In this document: positions 15,039 through 25,753 of the stretch, one piece after another | Position numbering within the stretch: the stretch's first letter is position 1 | Layout of the letters: each line of letters opens with the position of its first letter | Assembly: GCA_036676395.1 (NCBI GenBank) | Contig: JAKFCY010000003.1 | Coordinates: 1-64,000, forward strand | DNA: 64,000 nt | Direction: 5' to 3' | Source of the DNA: Bdellovibrio sp. | GTDB lineage: Bacteria; Bdellovibrionota; Bdellovibrionia; Bdellovibrionales; Bdellovibrionaceae | Translations under genes and position numbers: made by a program | Notes under the pieces: generated by a model | The model's database searches: none | What the model was told of the DNA's origin: nothing | The model's input: only the letters and a program-made list of their open reading frames with translations

Positions 15039-16433
15039 CTACTCACTGGCTATTGGCGGTGTGTCGCCATCTGTACACGGCTCGCTAGGAACTGTCGGGT
15101 CTGAATTGGTCGGATTCTCAGACTGACCAACCGAGACCGAAAACGCTGCGACTTTAGCCGCACTTGCATTTAGAATCTTTGCACTGTTGTTCGAAGTTGT
15201 ACCGGTTGCATAACTATTATAGTCAAAGCCTGGGTTCGAAAAACGAGGTATCCGGGTGTAAGTTCCGTAAGCCATAACGGTTCTGAATTTACCCGAAGAG
15301 TTTTCATAACCATCACTATGATTTAAGCCCATGTTATGACCCAACTCATGTGTAAATGAAAATTGTTTAAACGCTGTCGTTTTCGTGATCGAAAAACCGG
15401 TGCTGAACGAAGACCCAACATAACCAATACCTGCAGTTGATGAATTATAATAAGCCACCACTGAAACTAAATCGGCGCCGACTCTTTTGCGTTCGGCATG
15501 AACCGCATCCCATTTACCATCACTTGTGCCTTTTAAAGCCGATAGATCAGATGAGAATGTGCTTTCAGTTTGAGTTAAAGCCATAATTCCCACTAACCGA
15601 ATGGCTAAATTCGCACCACTGTTTTGATACGCTTTATTTGAATCAGCAATACCCATTTGAATTAAAGCTTTCATCGCATCCACGCCACCCACGTTTTTTA
15701 AAGCATTCGGCGCATAGGCGACCAAGACATCAACCGTCGGAACCGCATCCATTGCCGTAACATCTTGTGCGGCCGCTTCAGTTTCCAGTGGTTGCGCAAA
15801 ATTCAGCGCGTTTTCGCCTTCTTCAGTTAGACAGTCTTCGCTGTGATCATGAATACTTTTAACTGTATGTGTACCGTCACCGGCAAAACGAATCTCGTAA
15901 GATTCTTGCGTTCCATTTTCGCTAATATTGGCCGTTAACACATTATTGTTAATAACTAAAGTTACATTACTTAAGTCATCGTTATCAATTCGACCCGTAG
16001 CCACGATGTTGTTCTCAGAATATTTCTTAACATCTTGTAATACGACGTTCACTGATTTGTTATTCAGGAGGGGCAGATGAAAATTATTACTACTTCTATT
16101 TAATAGACGTTGTCTTAATTGACCGACGTTAATACGAACTTGTCGTGTTTGCGTTTCATCTTGGTCGTTGTTATTTGTGTTTTCAGGCTGGCTGCGCAGA
16201 GCAAGGTGAGTGACATCTTCAAAAAGATCATCGTTATTTTGAATATTATCTGTATCCATTGCAGCGGCCATAGTTCTGGCTTCGCAGCTATTTGCCCCGT
16301 TCGCTGTCGAAGCAGCGTAAGGCTTGTCAGAAGAGGACGAAAGTAAACAGGATTGTAATACGCTCGTCAGAGTTAATGTTAATACCACGTTTCGTAAATT
16401 GTTTTTTGTTACTCTTGTGTTTTTCATGTGCAA
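15039..16433 (-). CDS. Zinc metallopeptidase, M12B/reprolysin-like, probable lipoprotein with prodomain
   Basis: HELGHNMGLNH (HExxHxxGxxH), Met-turn TVMAY, lipobox-like LQSC. Confidence 0.85.
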   Translation of the reverse strand: MHMKNTRVTKNNLRNVVLTLTLTSVLQSCLLSSSSDKPYAASTANGANSCEARTMAAAMDTDNIQNNDDLFEDVTHLALRSQPENTNNNDQDETQTRQVRINVGQLRQRLLNRSSNNFHLPLLNNKSVNVVLQDVKKYSENNIVATGRIDNDDLSNVTLVINNNVLTANISENGTQESYEIRFAGDGTHTVKSIHDHSEDCLTEEGENALNFAQPLETEAAAQDVTAMDAVPTVDVLVAYAPNALKNVGGVDAMKALIQMGIADSNKAYQNSGANLAIRLVGIMALTQTESTFSSDLSALKGTSDGKWDAVHAERKRVGADLVSVVAYYNSSTAGIGYVGSSFSTGFSITKTTAFKQFSFTHELGHNMGLNHSDGYENSSGKFRTVMAYGTYTRIPRFSNPGFDYNSYATGTTSNNSAKILNASAAKVAAFSVSVGQSENPTNSDPTVPSEPCTDGDTPPIASE

Positions 16434-16878: not shown

Positions 16879-18888
16879 ATGATTATTCAAAAACCATATA
16901 ACAAGAGTTTTTTTAATGTAACCCAGCTTGTACCGGTTACTGCTAAAACTCACACAACTGCTGAGCACGAGGGAATCTTTAACGAGATGCCCTTGCCAGC
17001 GTGTATGGTAGATTTAAAGAATAAAATTATCACAAAAATAAATCCAGCCTTTGAAAAGTTTCTGAATAACCGCGATCTAAAATTAAATGAGTTAGATCTG
17101 GCTGTAGATCGTTTAGCTGAAGGCAATTGGCTCGCCAGCGAAGAATACACCGTAAAATCACCTAAGGGTGATTTTATCACTTATCTGTTAACATCGGGCG
17201 AACCCATTCGTACCGGTGCTACCGAAATAAATATCCTTTATTTAAACGATGTGACGTTTTTAAAAAAAATGGAAGTTGATCTTCAGCACAGCGAAGCCCG
17301 CTTTGCCAATTCACTCTTAACTGCCCACATTGGTTTATGGGATGCAGATCCTGTATCTGGTTTAACTTATATTTGCCCTCGTATGGCCAAAGACTGGGGC
17401 TTTGATCACTCACAAAACCCGGTTCAATCAACAGCCATCGTGCAAGCCATTCACCCTCAAGACCGCCCGCTAGTTTGGGCTTCAGTCGAAAAAGCCATGT
17501 TAGAAGGGCTTCCCTATCATGCTGAATACCGTGTGGTACGCCCTGATGGCTCTATTATTTGGATCGAAGCCCGCGGTGAATACATCAAAGATATCAATGG
17601 CTATCCTTTTCGCTTTTCAGGAACATCAATGAATATTACCGAGACCGTAGAAACAAAATTAAAATTAATGCAAGAACTCGAAGAACAAAAAGAGATCGTT
17701 GCAAATTTAAAACAAATTCAACAAACAGCAGACTGCGCTCATAAAAACAAAAATGTTTTCTTAGCAAATGTCAGTCACGAAATCAGAACACCCTTAACCG
17801 CCATTTTAGGTTTTGCTGATTTACTTAAAGATGGGCCGATCTCAGAAATTGAAAAAACTCAATTTATTGAAACCATTAGCCGCAATGGCAATACCCTGAT
17901 TAAAATTATCGACGACTTATTAGATCTATCAAAAGTAGAAGCTAATTGTCTTGAACTAGAAAAAATTGAAATGCCCATTCAACCGCTACTACATAGCGTC
18001 GTTCAACAATTTAAAGATAAAGCGCGCAGTAAAAATCTTTATATCTTATTAGATATTCAAAATGAACTGCCGCATGCCATTTTGTCTGACAGTGTGCGCA
18101 TCCAACAGGTTTTATCCAATTTATTAAGTAACGCCGTAAAATTCACCGATCAAGGTGGCGTTATCGTGCAAGTTAAGTCGATCATAAAAAAACAATCAAA
18201 GACCGAAATTCAAATTCGTGTCACCGATACCGGAATTGGCTTAACCGAAGAGCAAAAAGTTCGTCTATTTCAGCCCTATGCCCAGGCTGAAACCAGCACC
18301 ACCAGAAAATTTGGCGGTACGGGTTTAGGTTTAGCCTTATCAAAACATTTGGCTCAGGCGCTGGATGGTGATCTAATTATTGAACGCTATGAAAAAGATG
18401 CGGGCTGTACGTTTACTTTTACTCTGACAGCAGAAATTCCAACCGTTGCAAGAATCACCGCTTGTGACGTAACAAAGGCTTTACAACAGATGAATTTTGC
18501 ACCCTTAGCAGGATTTAAAATTTTATTAGCTGAAGACTCGTTAGATAATCAGTATTACGTTGAAAAATTCTTATCAAAAAATGGGGCTATTGTAACGGTG
18601 GCCGACAATGGTAATGAAGCTATTGAAAAATGCACCAAAGAACAATATGACGTTATTCTTATGGATATCGAAATGCCGGTCATGGATGGCTATGAAGCCA
18701 CTCGCAAACTTCGCCAATTAGGTTACAAGATGCCAATATTAGCGCTTACAGCCCATGCTATGGCCGAAGAGCGCGGTAAAACGCGTGAAGCTGGCTGCGA
18801 TGGCCACTTAACAAAACCTATTGATACACACCAGCTCTTATCTGCCTTAGAAAGCGTTTTAAAGACTTCTCTCAAAAAGAAACACTAA
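16879..18888 (+). CDS. PAS-domain hybrid histidine kinase/response regulator
   Basis: IHPQDR..EYRVVRPDGSIIWIEARG (PAS_3), LANVSHEIRTPL, NAVKFT, GGTGLGL, and a REC domain with DIEMP. Confidence 0.9.
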   Translation: MIIQKPYNKSFFNVTQLVPVTAKTHTTAEHEGIFNEMPLPACMVDLKNKIITKINPAFEKFLNNRDLKLNELDLAVDRLAEGNWLASEEYTVKSPKGDFITYLLTSGEPIRTGATEINILYLNDVTFLKKMEVDLQHSEARFANSLLTAHIGLWDADPVSGLTYICPRMAKDWGFDHSQNPVQSTAIVQAIHPQDRPLVWASVEKAMLEGLPYHAEYRVVRPDGSIIWIEARGEYIKDINGYPFRFSGTSMNITETVETKLKLMQELEEQKEIVANLKQIQQTADCAHKNKNVFLANVSHEIRTPLTAILGFADLLKDGPISEIEKTQFIETISRNGNTLIKIIDDLLDLSKVEANCLELEKIEMPIQPLLHSVVQQFKDKARSKNLYILLDIQNELPHAILSDSVRIQQVLSNLLSNAVKFTDQGGVIVQVKSIIKKQSKTEIQIRVTDTGIGLTEEQKVRLFQPYAQAETSTTRKFGGTGLGLALSKHLAQALDGDLIIERYEKDAGCTFTFTLTAEIPTVARITACDVTKALQQMNFAPLAGFKILLAEDSLDNQYYVEKFLSKNGAIVTVADNGNEAIEKCTKEQYDVILMDIEMPVMDGYEATRKLRQLGYKMPILALTAHAMAEERGKTREAGCDGHLTKPIDTHQLLSALESVLKTSLKKKH

Positions 18889-19049
18889 TGTTAACCTTTT
18901 AACAGATTTTTTATTTGTAAATACAAAATTATTTGTATCATTTCGATCCTGCATATTTTTTAACACAGTCATATTTGTTATTCTTGATCTCGGCGCTATT
19001 TAAAAAGCAGCGCTATCAACAATAACAACTAACGTGATTTGGGGTGCGA

Positions 19050-19697
19050 ATGACCGCTGTTAAAAAAATGTTTCAAGACGAAATGAATGCTGTTCAAAAA
19101 ATGATTGTTGAAATGGACTGGAAAGACCCAGAGTTTTACGCCGAATGGCTGGCTCAGACTTACTTCTTTGTCTGTCACTCAACACGCATCATCGCCACAG
19201 CAGGGGTGAAGTTTCCGATAGAAAAAAATGCACTTCATAACCGGTTTTTACAGCATGCAACCGAAGAAAAAAATCATGAAATCATCGCTATCAAAGATTT
19301 GAAACATTTAGGCCGTGATATTAAAGAGTTCTCGCCGCTTCCGGCAACACAGGCTTTTTATCAGTCACAATACTATTGGATCGATCAAGTTGATCCCGCC
19401 TCGGTGTATGGATATTTTTTAGTGTTAGAATGCCTGGCTATTCAATGCGGGCCGGTGTTAATGCAAAAATTAAAACCGCATCATCCTGAAAAAAGTTTAA
19501 CCTTCTTACGTATTCACGTTGAAGAAGATGAAGACCATATCAATGAACATAACGAAGTTTTAGATACTTTTAATCAAAAAGAAACTGAACACATCATCGA
19601 AAATTTAAAAGTCAGTGCCTATATGTATATACAAATTCTAAAAAGTGTTGAAGAAAAAGTTAGATCTAAGCGTTCATTCAACAAGAAATCTGCCTAA
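19050..19697 (+). CDS. Heme-oxygenase-like diiron enzyme (iron-containing redox enzyme family)
   Basis: Helical protein with HATEEKNHE, YFLVLE and FLRIHVEEDEDH metal-ligand motifs typical of the HO-like/PqqC/CADD superfamily. Confidence 0.75.
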   Translation: MTAVKKMFQDEMNAVQKMIVEMDWKDPEFYAEWLAQTYFFVCHSTRIIATAGVKFPIEKNALHNRFLQHATEEKNHEIIAIKDLKHLGRDIKEFSPLPATQAFYQSQYYWIDQVDPASVYGYFLVLECLAIQCGPVLMQKLKPHHPEKSLTFLRIHVEEDEDHINEHNEVLDTFNQKETEHIIENLKVSAYMYIQILKSVEEKVRSKRSFNKKSA

Positions 19698-19709
19698 TTG
19701 GGTGCTTCG

Positions 19710-20432
19710 ATGAAAACAAATAGTTTATCTAATATTGATTTTACGTATCATGTGTTTTCACCCAAAGCCTGGCGAGAAAAAAATCAGCCCGAACAAATGC
19801 AACAGGCCTTTGAAACGTGGCTAAAAGTTTGGACCGACACCTATAAAGGAAGGGATTTCGAAGTTAAAGCTGAAGAATTTATTCGCCACGATTTAATTTG
19901 CGCCGTGATGGCAAATGGTGAAGCGGCTGCGGTTCACTGTTACAGTTTTTTTGATATCGACTCTAAACCCGATGTCAGCACTAAATATTTTCAGTTTTTT
20001 TCGCCAGAGTTTGTGAACAAGATGAAAGCTAAAAATATTCACACCGTCATGTCGATGGAATACTTAACCGTGAATGAAAAATTTCGCTCTAGTATTATCG
20101 GCTTTTCGCTTGGGCGTGCGCTGATCCAACTGGGTGTGCGTTTATTCGAAAATTCACCAGGGCATGCGATCGTGGCCCCGGCCAGAAAAGACGTCAAAGT
20201 TCATGAAATGGCTTATGACTGCGGTTTTACGTGCATTGAAGCGGATGTGATTCAGCGCGGATTTGCCTGTGACATGATTGCTTATTTTAAAGGTGACCAC
20301 AAAAATGTATCCGACCCATTTTTGAGCCGGATATGCGATCGTCTGTGGGATAATCGGGTGATTTCTGAATCCATCGCTGAGCATGTTACTGATAACGTGC
20401 CGGCCGCGATTCCTATTCGAAAAGTGGTCTAA
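19710..20432 (+). CDS. GNAT-fold protein (LuxI/FeeM-like acyltransferase candidate)
   Basis: MEYLTVNEKFR..GFSLGRALI resembles GNAT motif A and ..MAYDCGF resembles motif B. Starts 12 bp after the diiron enzyme gene. Confidence 0.5.
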   Translation: MKTNSLSNIDFTYHVFSPKAWREKNQPEQMQQAFETWLKVWTDTYKGRDFEVKAEEFIRHDLICAVMANGEAAAVHCYSFFDIDSKPDVSTKYFQFFSPEFVNKMKAKNIHTVMSMEYLTVNEKFRSSIIGFSLGRALIQLGVRLFENSPGHAIVAPARKDVKVHEMAYDCGFTCIEADVIQRGFACDMIAYFKGDHKNVSDPFLSRICDRLWDNRVISESIAEHVTDNVPAAIPIRKVV

Positions 20433-21216
20433 CGTTATTCGTAAGAAATTTTTCTTCTGAAAAACGTTTTAACTCATACTCCTCTTGGCGTCTTTGGCGC
20501 TCAAGTTCATCCGGGGTATTTACTAATTTTGCCGACAGGACTGCCACAAAGCAGTCCTGGGCATTATGATCTAGATCAGTCAGCGGAGCCACGAATTCTA
20601 ATTTATACATAAATTCATTTTTTAAGGCTGATGCTGTTTCAACCACTGCATGCGGCGGAATTTCTGAATGCACAATACGACGCTCAGCTAAAGCCACAGC
20701 CACATCGCCAAAGATTTTTTCGACAACTGTCGCGTCTTTACGGGCAAACAATTGATCCCATGGTGTAGTTTCTAATTCATCTAAAGAATAACTGCATAAT
20801 GAATAATAATTAAATGTGCGGTAAACCTGACGGGTTCCCATATACACTTCAACAATATGATCGTTTTCTAAAATATTAAAAAATTCAGCCGGCGGCGCTA
20901 AACGTAATGAACGAAGCGCAAACCATAATAACTGTTTTTCTTGTACGGTATTGAAAAGTTCTTTTTGCTGTGAAGCCATCTGAAAAACATCTTTATAGAT
21001 TTTCAGACGGTTTGAAATAGATGTGAACTCTGAATCATCTAACTTTAATAATTTAATATCAGCCGTGTTAGAAAAAACTCTGAAAGTAGATCCAAGTTTA
21101 GCGGCCAGTTCATGCATGCGCAAAACTGTCGAACAAAACTCTTTGAATGTATTTGATAATTCTCTTGCTGCGGGACTCGTTGAATTTCTAAGAATCGATT
21201 CCGTAACCTGAGACAT
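20413..21216 (-). CDS. Hypothetical protein with a PAS-like C-terminal region
   Basis: HIVEVY..RQVYRTFNYYSLCSYSLDELETTPWDQLFAR resembles the PAS core pattern. GAGGTG RBS. Co-oriented directly downstream of the XRE gene. Confidence 0.55.
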   Translation of the reverse strand: MSQVTESILRNSTSPAARELSNTFKEFCSTVLRMHELAAKLGSTFRVFSNTADIKLLKLDDSEFTSISNRLKIYKDVFQMASQQKELFNTVQEKQLLWFALRSLRLAPPAEFFNILENDHIVEVYMGTRQVYRTFNYYSLCSYSLDELETTPWDQLFARKDATVVEKIFGDVAVALAERRIVHSEIPPHAVVETASALKNEFMYKLEFVAPLTDLDHNAQDCFVAVLSAKLVNTPDELERQRRQEEYELKRFSEEKFLTNNVRPLFE

Positions 21217-21246
21217 AAACACCTCTTCTGAATCAAAAAAACAGAA

Positions 21247-21528
21247 TTAACTAGCTTTTGTTTTTTTCTTTTTCTTAAAGATCTTAGCTTCAATAGAACG
21301 CTTAGAATCCGAAACCATTGCGGTAACAACTTGATCGCGACTTAATGCAAGCACGTCGATCAAATGGTGAAAACAATGTGATGGTGGCGCACATAAACCG
21401 CGCTCCCAGTTAGAAACAAATTGCACATGCACTTTCAATGACTGAGACAATTCAGTCTGCGTAAAGCCTGCGCTTAATCTTTTTTCTTTTAAATAAACAC
21501 CTAAGTTTTGAAAATCGCCTGTTTTCAT
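21247..21528 (-). CDS. XRE-family helix-turn-helix transcriptional regulator
   Basis: LKEKRLSAGFTQTELSQSLKVHVQFVSNWERGLCAPP. Confidence 0.9.
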   Translation of the reverse strand: MKTGDFQNLGVYLKEKRLSAGFTQTELSQSLKVHVQFVSNWERGLCAPPSHCFHHLIDVLALSRDQVVTAMVSDSKRSIEAKIFKKKKKTKAS

Positions 21529-21704
21529 TTATTTCGTGCCCCTATAATTACTATGATGATTTACGTTATACTAAAATATAATTCAGTTTAAAACACATCT
21601 TTGATATAAGTCTATTTTCAGTAAATACTTACATCACTGTCAATTCTATAGACATAGAATGTATTGTTTTTTTGTGCAAATAAAATATTATTTAAAAGTT
21701 ACGG

Positions 21705-22886
21705 CTAAACTTCAAAACGTTTAATATGCAAATAAGCAGGAATTTCAAGACCATAGATGCCATCCACCAACGTTTTTGCTGCATTAAAACTTAACCCCAT
21801 GCCATGCCCGGAACAGCCTGCTAGATAATGCAAATTGGGCTCGTCAGAAACTGCCCCAATTAACATTTGCCCATCGGGCGAATAGCCCATAATTCCGGCC
21901 CATTGCCTTGCGATTTCAGCCTGCGGCCCAAAGCGAAAGTGAGTCTTAACAAAATCAAACAAAGCTGTCTGAATAACTTCTGTTGTTTGATCGGCGTGGG
22001 TCTTCTCGGTTTCTGAAGCTAGGTTTCGGAAACCACCAATTAATAATTCACCCGTTGGCAGCTGACGAAAATAACAAAGATGCTTAGTTAAATAACATGG
22101 CCCCTTAACAAATTGGGGTAATGGCTTTGTTAAAAGTATTTGTCCGCGACCGGGAACAATCAATGTTGAAAACTTTGGATTAACCAAAGGCAAATAAGCA
22201 TTCACTGTGATCACCACCTGCGCTGCTTGCAATTCTTCTTTGTCTGTTTTGATAACAAACTTATCGCTGATTTTGCTTACACTTTGAACTTCAGAGTTTT
22301 CGTGAATATAAACATTAATTTTTTTTAAGATTTCACCTAGTAATTTCACCGGATGAATATACCCATCCCCTGCATAAACTACTCCGCCTTCAAAACCTGT
22401 CACGCCGTAATCGCGATCCATATCTGAAGCATTTACTGCATACACATCAATGCCCTCGGCGCGCATGGTTTTTATCGTCTCTTGATAATGCGCCCAACGT
22501 TCGCTGTTCGCAGCCACGGTGCATGAACCCGTAATTTTAAAATCAAGTTGCTCAGCTTGATCCTGGATAATGTGCTCTTGCAAAAGTTTACGATTAGTTT
22601 CTGAAAATTTCCAGATTTCGACAGCCTTGCCTAAACCAAACTGATCTTTAAGTTTAATAAAATGTTCTGTTGAACCACAAGTGACAAATCCGGCATTTCT
22701 GCCGGAGGCGCCGTAACCGATTTGATTTTTTTCGACGATGCCGATTTTTAAATCTGGATTTTTTTGTAACAACCAATAAGCTGTTGATAAACCGGCAATG
22801 CCCCCGCCCACGATCACATAATCATAATTTTTTAATTTTAGTGTGCCGGTGTTTAATTTAAAATCTTGCCAAAAAGATCGAGTCAT
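21705..22886 (-). CDS. FAD-dependent oxidoreductase (DAO/PuuB-like)
   Basis: IVGGGIAG, GASGRNAGF, WAGIMG, GCSGHGM. Confidence 0.9.
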   Translation of the reverse strand: MTRSFWQDFKLNTGTLKLKNYDYVIVGGGIAGLSTAYWLLQKNPDLKIGIVEKNQIGYGASGRNAGFVTCGSTEHFIKLKDQFGLGKAVEIWKFSETNRKLLQEHIIQDQAEQLDFKITGSCTVAANSERWAHYQETIKTMRAEGIDVYAVNASDMDRDYGVTGFEGGVVYAGDGYIHPVKLLGEILKKINVYIHENSEVQSVSKISDKFVIKTDKEELQAAQVVITVNAYLPLVNPKFSTLIVPGRGQILLTKPLPQFVKGPCYLTKHLCYFRQLPTGELLIGGFRNLASETEKTHADQTTEVIQTALFDFVKTHFRFGPQAEIARQWAGIMGYSPDGQMLIGAVSDEPNLHYLAGCSGHGMGLSFNAAKTLVDGIYGLEIPAYLHIKRFEV

Positions 22887-23434
22887 AAATATTTAATCAT
22901 CTCGACAGCCGTACAGCGGCAGGGTTTTCCGTCACGTACACAAGTGTAATCCACATCTATCCAATAGTTAGGATGCGTAGCCACGGGTTCAAAACCAAAC
23001 TTAGTTAAATAACGAATCGAAGAATTATTTGGCGATTCTTGCCAGGCATGCGTAACGATGGCTTCGGTTCCAATGGCTTTTAAACACTTGATTGCAGCCT
23101 CTGACAGCTGTGGCCCCCAACCTAAACCCTGAACTTCTGCAGATAAAAATAAACTTTGAAAATAGCCTGCTTTATCTTGCGCAACTTTCCATAATTCAGG
23201 ACGAAGCTTTGCACCTTTGCCTTTGCTCCAACTTCCCGGAGGGTACGCTAAGCGCAATCCCTGAATTTTATTATTGGCATCCACTAAAACAAAAGAATAC
23301 ATGACACCGTTTAATAGTGATTTTTGATAACACTCGTTTAGTTCTTCTAAACTAAAATAATTTTCACCGATTGTGGCATCGGTGAAAACTTTAATTTGTG
23401 TTAAATCATCTAAATGCAAGGGACGAATCTGCAT
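22883..23434 (-). CDS. GNAT N-acetyltransferase
   Basis: LFLSAEVQGLGWG and NNSSIRYLTKFGF. ATGA overlap with the oxidoreductase gene. Confidence 0.85.
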   Translation of the reverse strand: MQIRPLHLDDLTQIKVFTDATIGENYFSLEELNECYQKSLLNGVMYSFVLVDANNKIQGLRLAYPPGSWSKGKGAKLRPELWKVAQDKAGYFQSLFLSAEVQGLGWGPQLSEAAIKCLKAIGTEAIVTHAWQESPNNSSIRYLTKFGFEPVATHPNYWIDVDYTCVRDGKPCRCTAVEMIKYL

Positions 23435-24145: not shown

Positions 24146-25753
24146 ATGAAAAAAAAGGCCGAACTGCCTTACAATCTTGAAGAAGGAACTCCTCTAACCT
24201 ATTACCGATTAATTTTGGCGATCAGTGGTGTAGTTTATCTTTTATGGTGGTACCTGACGGATTACTTTTTACCACATTCTTTTAATCCGATTTACAGCCG
24301 CCTAGTGGCAACCTCTTGTCTTTGGCTAATTTTTATCGCTACCTATTTTTCTGAACACGTTCGTAAACATATCGACTTTTGGTTTTCAGTGGGCGCCTGG
24401 TCAGTGACTCTTCATTTTTATTATTTATTTTACAACAACCGCGCAGACTTAACCTGGGTTTGGGGTTGTTATATGGCGGTCGTCGCCGTCGCTGCCATGA
24501 TGCAAACCATGCGTTCGATGGTCAGTTACGTTCTTTACGTGGCCGTACTTTCAATTATCATAAATTATTTTAGTCCGAATTTAAGCACGGTATTGTTCTT
24601 ACCAGGAATTCTAACAATATTAGTTGTTGGTTTTGTTGGCATGCGCTCAAGACTAAAACTGATCAGCCAGGTTCGCGAAAGCGCACTGCAAATTCGTCGT
24701 TTATTAGACGCCACGTTTGAAGGAATGTGTCTTCATGATGGTGAATTTATTCTTGATGCCAACGACTCTATGGTAAAAATGTTCGGTTATAACCATCGGC
24801 ACGAAATTGTTGGCAAGCCTATTTTTGCCCTGTGTACTGTTGAGTCAGCACAACTGGGAGCCATAAATATCGCAACCCAGACTGAATCCTCTTATGAAGC
24901 TAGGGGAGTCCATAAGAATGGCTCTGTTTTTCCTATCGAAATTCGCGCTAAAACTTATACTTTAAAAGATGGTGCACTTGGGCGAGTTGTAGCCATTCAA
25001 GACATTACAGAGCGTAAAAAAAATGAACAGACAAAAATTTTATTTGAAGCTTCGCAAGAAGCGTTACGCATCAGAAATGAATTTATTTCGATCGCTTCTC
25101 ACGAATTAAAAACGCCGCTAACAAGTATTAAACTGCAAACGCAGATGACTCAAATAGCCGCTGAAAAAAATGAAGCACAAGCCTACAGCCCCGAACGAAT
25201 GAAAAAGTTTGTGAATCAAATTGACCGACAGGCAGATCGTTTAGCTAATTTAATCGAAGACATGTTAGATGTTTCACGAATTTCTTTAGGAAAACTATCT
25301 TTAGATATGCAGCCGACTTCATTAAATTCATTAATCGAAGAGACCTTAGAATCGATGGCTGAGTTAATTAAGCAAAATGGTAACGAAATTATTCGCAAGC
25401 TCGACACTCAGGTCGTGGCAAACATTGATCGTTTTCGTATGGAGCAGGTATTAATTAATTTACTGACGAATGCCATCAAATACGGTGAAGGCAAGCCGAT
25501 CACTATCAGCTTAAGCAAACGCGGTGGCGAAGCTTCACTTTCAGTGCAGGATCAAGGCATGGGTATCGCCAAAGAAAACCAAGAAAGAATTTTTGCCCGC
25601 TTTGAACGCGCAGTGGCCGCAAAAAACATTAGCGGACTAGGCTTAGGACTCTATATTTCACAGCAAATTGTTCAGGCTCATCGCGGAACCATTATAGTAA
25701 AAAGTGCCCCGAACGAAGGGGCTTGTTTTATCGTAAATATTCCAGCAGAATGA
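24146..25753 (+). CDS. Membrane-bound PAS sensor histidine kinase
   Basis: Multiple N-terminal TM helices, PAS domain, SIASHELKTPL, NAIKY, DQGMG, GLGLGL. Confidence 0.9.
   Translation: MKKKAELPYNLEEGTPLTYYRLILAISGVVYLLWWYLTDYFLPHSFNPIYSRLVATSCLWLIFIATYFSEHVRKHIDFWFSVGAWSVTLHFYYLFYNNRADLTWVWGCYMAVVAVAAMMQTMRSMVSYVLYVAVLSIIINYFSPNLSTVLFLPGILTILVVGFVGMRSRLKLISQVRESALQIRRLLDATFEGMCLHDGEFILDANDSMVKMFGYNHRHEIVGKPIFALCTVESAQLGAINIATQTESSYEARGVHKNGSVFPIEIRAKTYTLKDGALGRVVAIQDITERKKNEQTKILFEASQEALRIRNEFISIASHELKTPLTSIKLQTQMTQIAAEKNEAQAYSPERMKKFVNQIDRQADRLANLIEDMLDVSRISLGKLSLDMQPTSLNSLIEETLESMAELIKQNGNEIIRKLDTQVVANIDRFRMEQVLINLLTNAIKYGEGKPITISLSKRGGEASLSVQDQGMGIAKENQERIFARFERAVAAKNISGLGLGLYISQQIVQAHRGTIIVKSAPNEGACFIVNIPAE

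Follow-up and report, generated by a model that had tools for sequence, protein, structure and literature searches.

The 64,000-bp stretch at positions 1 to 64,000 of contig JAKFCY010000003.1 (assembly GCA_036676395.1) from Bdellovibrio sp., hereafter the window, harbored at 19050–21528 a cassette of two putative enzyme genes facing genes for a putative sensor and a DNA-binding protein: (i) gene A (19050–19697, forward strand; 215 aa), the ATG of which was preceded by GGGGTG; (ii) gene B (19710–20432, forward strand; 240 aa); (iii) gene C (20413–21216, reverse strand; 267 aa); and (iv) gene D (21247–21528, reverse strand; 93 aa), the first gene of a D–C operon. A and B were separated by 12 bp (19698–19709), B and C were convergent with a 20-bp overlap of their 3′ ends (20413–20432), and 30 bp separated D from the C gene downstream of it on the reverse strand. 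The start codon of C was the ATG at 21216, which had the ribosome-binding site GAGG before it, and the alternative GTG at 21222 fell within that site. The flanking spacers had a GC (guanine plus cytosine) fraction of 0.27 at 21450–21749 and of 0.36 to 0.37 at 18750–19199, against about 0.40 within the genes. The layout given in the initial annotation (12-bp A–B gap, 20-bp overlap of B with C, and AT-rich flanks) was confirmed from open reading frames, junctions, and GC content, and its domain assignments (diiron oxidase, GNAT, PAS-like, and XRE) held as well, by Pfam for A and D and by predicted folds for B and C.

The four proteins of the cassette

All four proteins were scanned against the Pfam and NCBIfam libraries at E ≤ 1. 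Gene A matched PF14518 (Haem_oxygenas_2) with E 8.7e-11 and 42.4 bits, compared to a gathering cut-off of 28.9 bits, and represented the haem-oxygenase-like diiron oxidases (HDOs). The metal-ligand set of HDOs consists of three His and three carboxylate residues; E73, H76, E127, H156, D160, and H163 of A were invariant in 63 family members and in a 27-row alignment, and A looks catalytically intact because all six metal-ligand positions were invariant. Comparison of the A profile with PDB sequences gave the uncharacterised structural-genomics protein 3dde (E 1.1e-18), MboA as the second-best match (2.9e-8), and UndA as a weak match (0.13–0.18). MboA, the mangotoxin acetylenase, is reported to be an HDO that makes an alkyne through iterative desaturations of a side chain. 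A shared PF14518 membership and the six conserved metal ligands with HDOs such as MboA and UndA, and its similarity to any characterised HDO was only distant. It was the sole strong member of its family in its own genome; at G000:C2:510552–511088, a 615-aa open frame of that genome also contained a distantly related HDO-like domain, which the A profile matched with E 6.9e-11.

B had no Pfam or NCBIfam family, and its profile found no relative among PDB sequences (best E 1). The AlphaFold model of B, built from 22 divergent homologues, had a predicted local distance difference test (pLDDT) score of 87.5 and a predicted TM-score of 0.85, and it displayed a GNAT fold. Foldseek placed LasI, an N-acyl-homoserine lactone (AHL) synthase, first (E 1e-6), with RpaI, BjaI, and FeeM within the first twenty matches. 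VIA-align of the same model against 48,161 solved chains gave (i) the AHL synthase RpaI at rank 1 (Z 15.5; 196 residues aligned) and (ii) the N-acyl amino acid synthase FeeM (2g0b) at rank 2 (Z 15.1; root-mean-square deviation 3.3; 178 of 188 residues). Across the structure searches, RpaI scored Z 15.5–15.6 with 196–198 residues aligned out of 212–213, and BjaI scored Z 14.3–14.6 over 192–195 residues. The predicted model had the LuxI-type topology, C-terminal helix included, and scored within 1 Z of other GNATs. With AHL synthases and FeeM as its top structural matches, the protein starting at 19710 bore out the earlier proposal that it had a GNAT fold. The B family comprised at least 1036 representatives at 50% identity and had the invariant residues W37, W41, F57, R59, R126, R159, G172, and W213; its named members were all annotated as 'hypothetical protein' and came from metagenome-assembled genomes of Bdellovibrionales, Oligoflexia, or Pseudobdellovibrionaceae. 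On the strength of the model, B is the presumed synthase of the cassette and belongs to an unnamed GNAT acyltransferase family with LuxI/FeeM-like topology.

C had no family above threshold in Pfam or NCBIfam and no PAS family at E ≤ 1; its sole match, ZSWIM4-8_C (E 0.016), was under its cut-off. The C profile gave nothing relevant among PDB sequences, and its best match there, Nup107 (E 0.07), was judged spurious. The model of C (pLDDT 85.1) was composed of a helical N-terminal region (residues about 1–103) followed by a PAS-fold domain (about 117–231), a fold built of a five-stranded antiparallel sheet flanked by helices. PAS, LOV, and HIF PAS-B domains took nearly all of the top 50 places with Foldseek and, among the 48,161 chains, with VIA-align: the PAS matches had Z 6.2–8.4 over 94–124 aligned residues with VIA-align, and a PAS probability of about 1.0 with a best E of 1.7e-3 with Foldseek. 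The language-model neighbours of C were PAS_9, PAS, and MEKHLA clusters at 0.92–0.93. The conserved polar residues of the C family were E123, Q130, R133, Y143, R159, H189, and E193, and a profile word search with C returned 21 close relatives, none with a name other than 'hypothetical'. C is the presumed ligand sensor, as its modelled fold suggests.

D, an XRE-family regulator, matched two helix-turn-helix (HTH) families, namely HTH_31 (PF13560; E 4.6e-7; 30.5 bits compared to a cut-off of 27) and HTH_3 (PF01381; E 8.2e-7; 29.4 bits compared to a cut-off of 23), and its subfamily shared the motif QF(V/I)SNWERG.

Recurrence, exchange, and co-divergence of the module

The gene neighbourhood of B was compared in loci of about 10–12 kb round 80 B matches from 71 genomes and 17 families, with 20 loci taken from 39 places in relatives and 60 from phylum-wide places chosen to spread over families. 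The sample was drawn from the best B matches, so that selection bias is possible, and it included near-duplicates of the window (L009 and L116) and of each other (L099/L100). The tally was made with hidden Markov models (HMMs) of the four families and covered 82 B genes. A was found within 300 bp of B in 61/82 cases and a membrane FA_desaturase in 13/82; one or the other oxidase was present at this distance in 73/82 cases and both in 1/82. C was found within 3 kb of B in 66/82 cases, D within 3.5 kb in 52/82, and an oxidase together with C and D in 47/82; the claim that the four genes co-occur in other genomes therefore did not fail. The four families recurred together at 20–40% identity (mean pairwise identity: A 33%, B 24%, C 23%, and D 31%), and 42 gene orders and orientations were displayed among 81 clusters. 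These low identities and the many gene orders mean that conservation of the set was more than the synteny of close kin, and the grouping of the four genes is far beyond chance.

The B family was present in 32/61 relatives and in 150/401 sampled genomes of the phylum, including 50/54 of the family to which the window belonged and 27/27 of one genus. The C family was present in 141/401 of the same genomes, with per-family tallies mirroring those of B. A hand count at genome level (n = 401) gave 125 genomes with B and C, 25 with B only, 16 with C only, and 235 with neither; kin are not independent, and hence no p-value was attached to these counts. Twenty of the 25 B-only genomes belonged to a single family (f22).

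Genomes with the module harbored 1 to 4 divergent copies of it. The own genome of the window contained a second one in locus L022 (G000:C2:1590206–1602835; module at L022:5950–8678), composed of B (249 aa), a 311-aa membrane FA_desaturase (PF00487; E 1.2e-30) in place of A, and then convergent C and D. D of this paralogous module was 62% identical to that of the window, and B and C were only about 20–23% identical; the desaturase had no sequence relative in PDB. The oxidase slot was thus interchangeable, being occupied by an HDO, a membrane fatty-acid desaturase, or a flavin adenine dinucleotide (FAD) oxidase, and the oxidase type switched at least five to six times on the B tree. UndA (an HDO and fatty acid decarboxylase) and UndB (a desaturase-like membrane enzyme) are reported to do the same job with two enzyme types, and the modules mirrored this pair in exchanging an HDO for a membrane desaturase.

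Three natural fusions were identified: (i) D+C, a 361-aa protein with HTH_3 at residues 12–63 (L026:7323–8408, reverse strand); (ii) B+A, a 469-aa protein with Haem_oxygenas_2 at residues 271–433 (L095:4251–5660, reverse strand); and (iii) B plus an FAD_binding_4 oxidase, a 770-aa protein (L094:3363–5675, reverse strand). The D+C fusion supports the idea that C and D are the two halves of a split receptor, and the B+A fusion supports the idea that the two enzymes act together.

Co-divergence was assessed in two ways. Across 25 non-redundant full modules, Mantel correlations between distance matrices were 0.51 for B–C, 0.51 for A–C, and 0.42 for A–B, each matched by 0/2000 permutations, and those involving D were weaker (0.11–0.26). 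When the type of oxidase accompanying each C was mapped on a tree of C, three changes sufficed, compared to a shuffled mean of 9.3, and 0/500 shuffles were as low.

The modules also varied in their additional genes: an FA_desaturase was present in addition to A at L066:3290–4282 (reverse strand) and L075:5696–6649 (forward strand), an S-adenosylmethionine (SAM) methyltransferase lay between A and C at L099:6359–7261 (forward strand), and an ABC exporter lay between B and C at L085:5939–7816 (forward strand) and likewise in L086. No acyl carrier protein (ACP) or acyl-coenzyme A (acyl-CoA) ligase recurred among the module neighbours. One genus (g23) had 2 to at least 6 C-family matches per genome, compared to 1 to 3 of B, and contained tandem C–C pairs without D (e.g., L099:7268–8766); these surplus C genes may be receptor 'solos'. 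A split module was observed in genome G036: an intact A–B pair, 85% identical to that of the window, was present at G036:C6:19155–20077 with no C or D within about 6 kb and no remnants of them by tblastn, and on a second contig (L010; G036:C1:478515–491210) the C ortholog adjoined a 48-residue B fragment containing a stop codon.

Regulatory DNA and surrounding genes

An imperfect palindrome with 33-nt arms (79% complementary) was located at 18972–19031, 20–80 bp upstream of A, and is a candidate operator or hairpin; it was kept in the near-identical genome G018 and partly in G383. The promoter region of the D–C operon (21529–21704, reverse strand) contained a sigma-70-like site, TTGACA-18-GAAAAT, at 21643–21614; the counts from promoter and terminator scans were not above those of shuffled sequences. 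This region was 83% conserved in a three-way alignment with G018 and G383 and had no inverted repeat of at least 12 nt upstream of D, and the sole motif common to nine D-upstream regions resembled a -35/-10 promoter. Contigs from a soil RNA library, 90–95% alike, covered segments of A, B, and C and are a weak hint that the three genes are expressed, as DNA may be present in libraries of this kind. No contig of this library reached D or the 5′ portion of C, which does not show that they are silent.

Two solo D-family genes were located outside the modules in the own genome, L120 (G000:C2:303436–303699) and L121 (G000:C2:381302–381547); one of the two was divergent from fliD–fliS, and the other adjoined rplM–rpsI plus two unknown open reading frames.

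Directly upstream of A was a gene for a hybrid histidine kinase (16879–18888, forward strand; PAS_3, HisKA, HATPase_c, and Response_reg), and two-component proteins were encoded within 3.5 kb of B in 35/80 loci. Short C proteins of 165 aa adjoined HisKA kinases in L021 and L027. It was considered that the histidine kinases next to A–B or to short C proteins carry a C-like domain, but homology was not shown: the C HMM gave a best full-sequence E of 0.47 among 50 two-component proteins. Just beyond the cassette, at 21705–23434 on the reverse strand, lay a second pair of acyltransferase and oxidase genes with a 4-bp overlap, which was kept in the near-identical G018: a GNAT (Acetyltransf_1; 22883–23434, reverse strand) and a DAO-family FAD oxidoreductase (21705–22886, reverse strand; E 1.5e-55). 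The wider flanks encoded a secreted reprolysin-like M12 metalloprotease (15039–16433, reverse strand) and a membrane PAS histidine kinase (24146–25753, forward strand).

A candidate synthase/receptor circuit and its alternatives

The reading that we favour, with a confidence slightly above even, is that the four genes form one module in which B and the oxidase would make an oxidised N-acyl-type molecule, C would sense this molecule, and D would transmit the signal to DNA. B would acylate an amine acceptor, with acyl-ACP or acyl-CoA as the donor, and A would then desaturate or otherwise oxidise the product of B in an O2-dependent reaction; this role of A is proposed because sister modules carried a membrane desaturase or an FAD oxidase in its slot and because its closest characterised solved relative, MboA, is a side-chain desaturase. 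The PAS-fold domain of C would sense a small ligand, most simply the product of B and the oxidase, and C would act via the XRE protein D to control transcription, as the D+C fusion suggests; the targets of D and C would probably include the module itself, resulting in a quorum-sensing-like or autocrine circuit. The substrate and product of the enzymes, the binding of a ligand by C, the DNA sites addressed, and any dependence on cell density are what we infer from the genes and their predicted folds. The divergent modules, the extra C copies, and the split module of G036 resemble diversified signalling channels. A wider proposal, advanced more tentatively and somewhat short of an even chance, is that Bdellovibrionota possess phylum-wide, diversified, self-made small-molecule circuits with parts unlike those of described quorum sensing: an orphan LuxI/FeeM-shaped synthase, an exchangeable oxidase setting the identity of the signal, a PAS plus XRE receptor with its parts separate or fused, and several orthogonal channels per genome together with solos.

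Several observations weigh against a dedicated circuit of this kind. Regarding the sensor and regulator genes, no D was detected in the vicinity of 30/82 B genes and no C in that of 16/82; family f22 had B in 31/107 genomes and C in just 13/107, and A–B was abutted there by a histidine kinase (about 470 aa) instead of C and D, so that the enzymes would work without C and D in some lineages. D-family regulators also stood alone, as did the two strong copies L120 and L121 in the own genome, and an operator common to both promoters was not found by repeat, promoter-scan, alignment, or nine-region motif searches. Regarding B, arylalkylamine N-acetyltransferases tied with its top structural scores (Z 14.9–15.3), over fewer residues (164–171), and at E ≤ 1 it was missed by both PF00765 (Autoind_synth; LuxI), which had zero matches in the whole own genome (99.3% complete), and PF13444 (Acetyltransf_5; FeeM/OlsB); the tied fold scores and the lack of LuxI and FeeM Pfam matches point to no particular acceptor or acyl-chain length for B. 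Regarding C, the PAS scores were middling (Z at most 8.4), with no Foldseek match reaching E ≤ 0.001, and a PAS domain may respond to O2, redox state, or light or serve only for dimerisation. Finally, the co-divergence measures (Mantel correlations and C tree) were inflated by shared ancestry.

The most serious alternative, though in our estimate an unlikely one, is that the genes make up a small bioactive-lipid cluster, the product of which would be a surfactant, an antibiotic, or a predation or envelope lipid and no cell-to-cell signal; C and D would then be a pathway-specific regulator that senses either a cue from the environment or a compound of the pathway, be it a precursor or, in a feedback loop, the product. 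Tailoring genes varied among the modules as in natural-product clusters (L066, L075, L099, L085/L086, and L094), the enzymes occurred without C and D in family f22, and known N-acyl amino acid synthase clusters are reported to yield bioactive lipids such as tyrazolones and stieleriacines. Weighing against such a cluster are the retention of a dedicated sensor/regulator pair across 17 families next to so small a gene set, the C lineages that follow the oxidase type, the several divergent modules within one genome, and the genus with several extra C copies per genome, like receptor solos; these features fit signalling channels better, though none is decisive.

Remodelling of membrane aminolipids, with B as an OlsB-like N-acyltransferase, the oxidase desaturating or hydroxylating lipids, and C and D tuning the process to O2, redox, or temperature, appears improbable. 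It agrees with the FeeM/OlsB-like fold of B and with the classical membrane FA_desaturase that the oxidase slot may hold, and sensing of O2 or redox state is common among PAS domains. The own genome, however, contained a canonical Acetyltransf_5 (OlsB/FeeM-type) gene elsewhere, its sole PF13444 match (G000:C2:744175–744459), and the B profile failed to align with the encoded protein (hhalign probability 0.1); besides, no OlsA-like second acyltransferase recurred among the neighbours, and housekeeping lipid genes would be unlikely to show 1 to 4 highly divergent copies in 42 gene orders, distributed patchily (150/401). A toxin–antitoxin or anti-phage cassette (GNAT toxin plus XRE antitoxin) or a set of chance neighbours is very improbable: GNAT toxins with HTH antitoxins exist and the HTH of D, in its HTH part only, matched HTH-bearing PADLOC models (e.g., RmrA, E 1.3e-8), but A, B, and C matched 0 PADLOC-DB models at E ≤ 0.01, no GNAT toxin system is known to show the coupling to an oxidase (73/82) seen for the 240-aa B with its LuxI/FeeM topology, and chance is ruled out by co-occurrence across 17 families.

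Among known systems, LuxI/LuxR (LasI, RpaI, and BjaI) had much in common with the signalling module that we favour: a GNAT-fold synthase of about 200–240 aa, which was the best structural match of B; a synthase gene linked to functions for sensing a small ligand and for binding DNA, often in convergent orientation, which varies; and several divergent pairs per genome plus extra receptor copies. The cassette differed from LuxI/LuxR in that (i) its putative receptor combined a PAS-fold protein with an XRE HTH protein encoded by another gene and was not of the LuxR type, with no LuxR-type domain (autoinducer-binding or GerE HTH) in C or D by Pfam scan; (ii) an O2-dependent oxidase was an obligatory third component; and (iii) nothing pointed to homoserine lactone as the product. 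One-component PAS plus HTH receptors (VqmA) and XRE-type quorum-sensing receptors (RRNPP) are further comparators, in which a ligand-sensing domain is coupled to HTH as in the natural D+C fusion; in the cassette, by contrast, the parts were usually separate polypeptides, the HTH was XRE-type and N-terminal, the sensor was PAS and not TPR, and the presumed ligand is a small acyl-derived compound and not a peptide or pyrazine.

FeeM-type clusters (tyz and stieleriacine) have the order that we propose for the cassette, N-acyltransferase and then O2-dependent desaturation, and FeeM was the second-best structural match of B. In the tyz cluster, TyzA/TyzC are reported to act in this order, the acylated product being desaturated with O2, and N-acyl dehydrotyrosines are known bioactive molecules. 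The oxidase of tyz is a nitroreductase-superfamily flavoenzyme, in contrast to the HDO or membrane desaturase of the modules, and no PAS/XRE sensor pair of their own is described for FeeM-type clusters. The pairing of an HDO with a GNAT enzyme, as in A and B, was unmentioned in the main text of a 2026 HDO mini-review, in which the terms acyltransferase, GNAT, N-acyl, quorum, and signal had 0 occurrences. Searches of titles and abstract openings for Bdellovibrio quorum sensing and for HDO plus GNAT, with subscription-only papers outside their scope, returned no description of the cassette, and in the literature searched no Bdellovibrio-type predator was found to be described as making a diffusible signal of its own. 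What would be new is therefore the synthase family, the obligatory and exchangeable oxidase, and the PAS plus XRE receptor, and what is known is the synthase-plus-receptor logic of LuxI/LuxR.

The proposed module would define two new protein families, B and C, would assign a function to a clade of HDOs, and would supply orthogonal synthase/receptor pairs for synthetic biology. The spread of the B family in the family of the window makes genetic tests feasible in cultivable strains. It would bear on the way in which Bdellovibrio-type predators coordinate their attack, their growth within the prey, and their release, and obligate bacterial predators would, if the wider proposal of phylum-wide circuits is true, have a first case of endogenous signalling chemistry.

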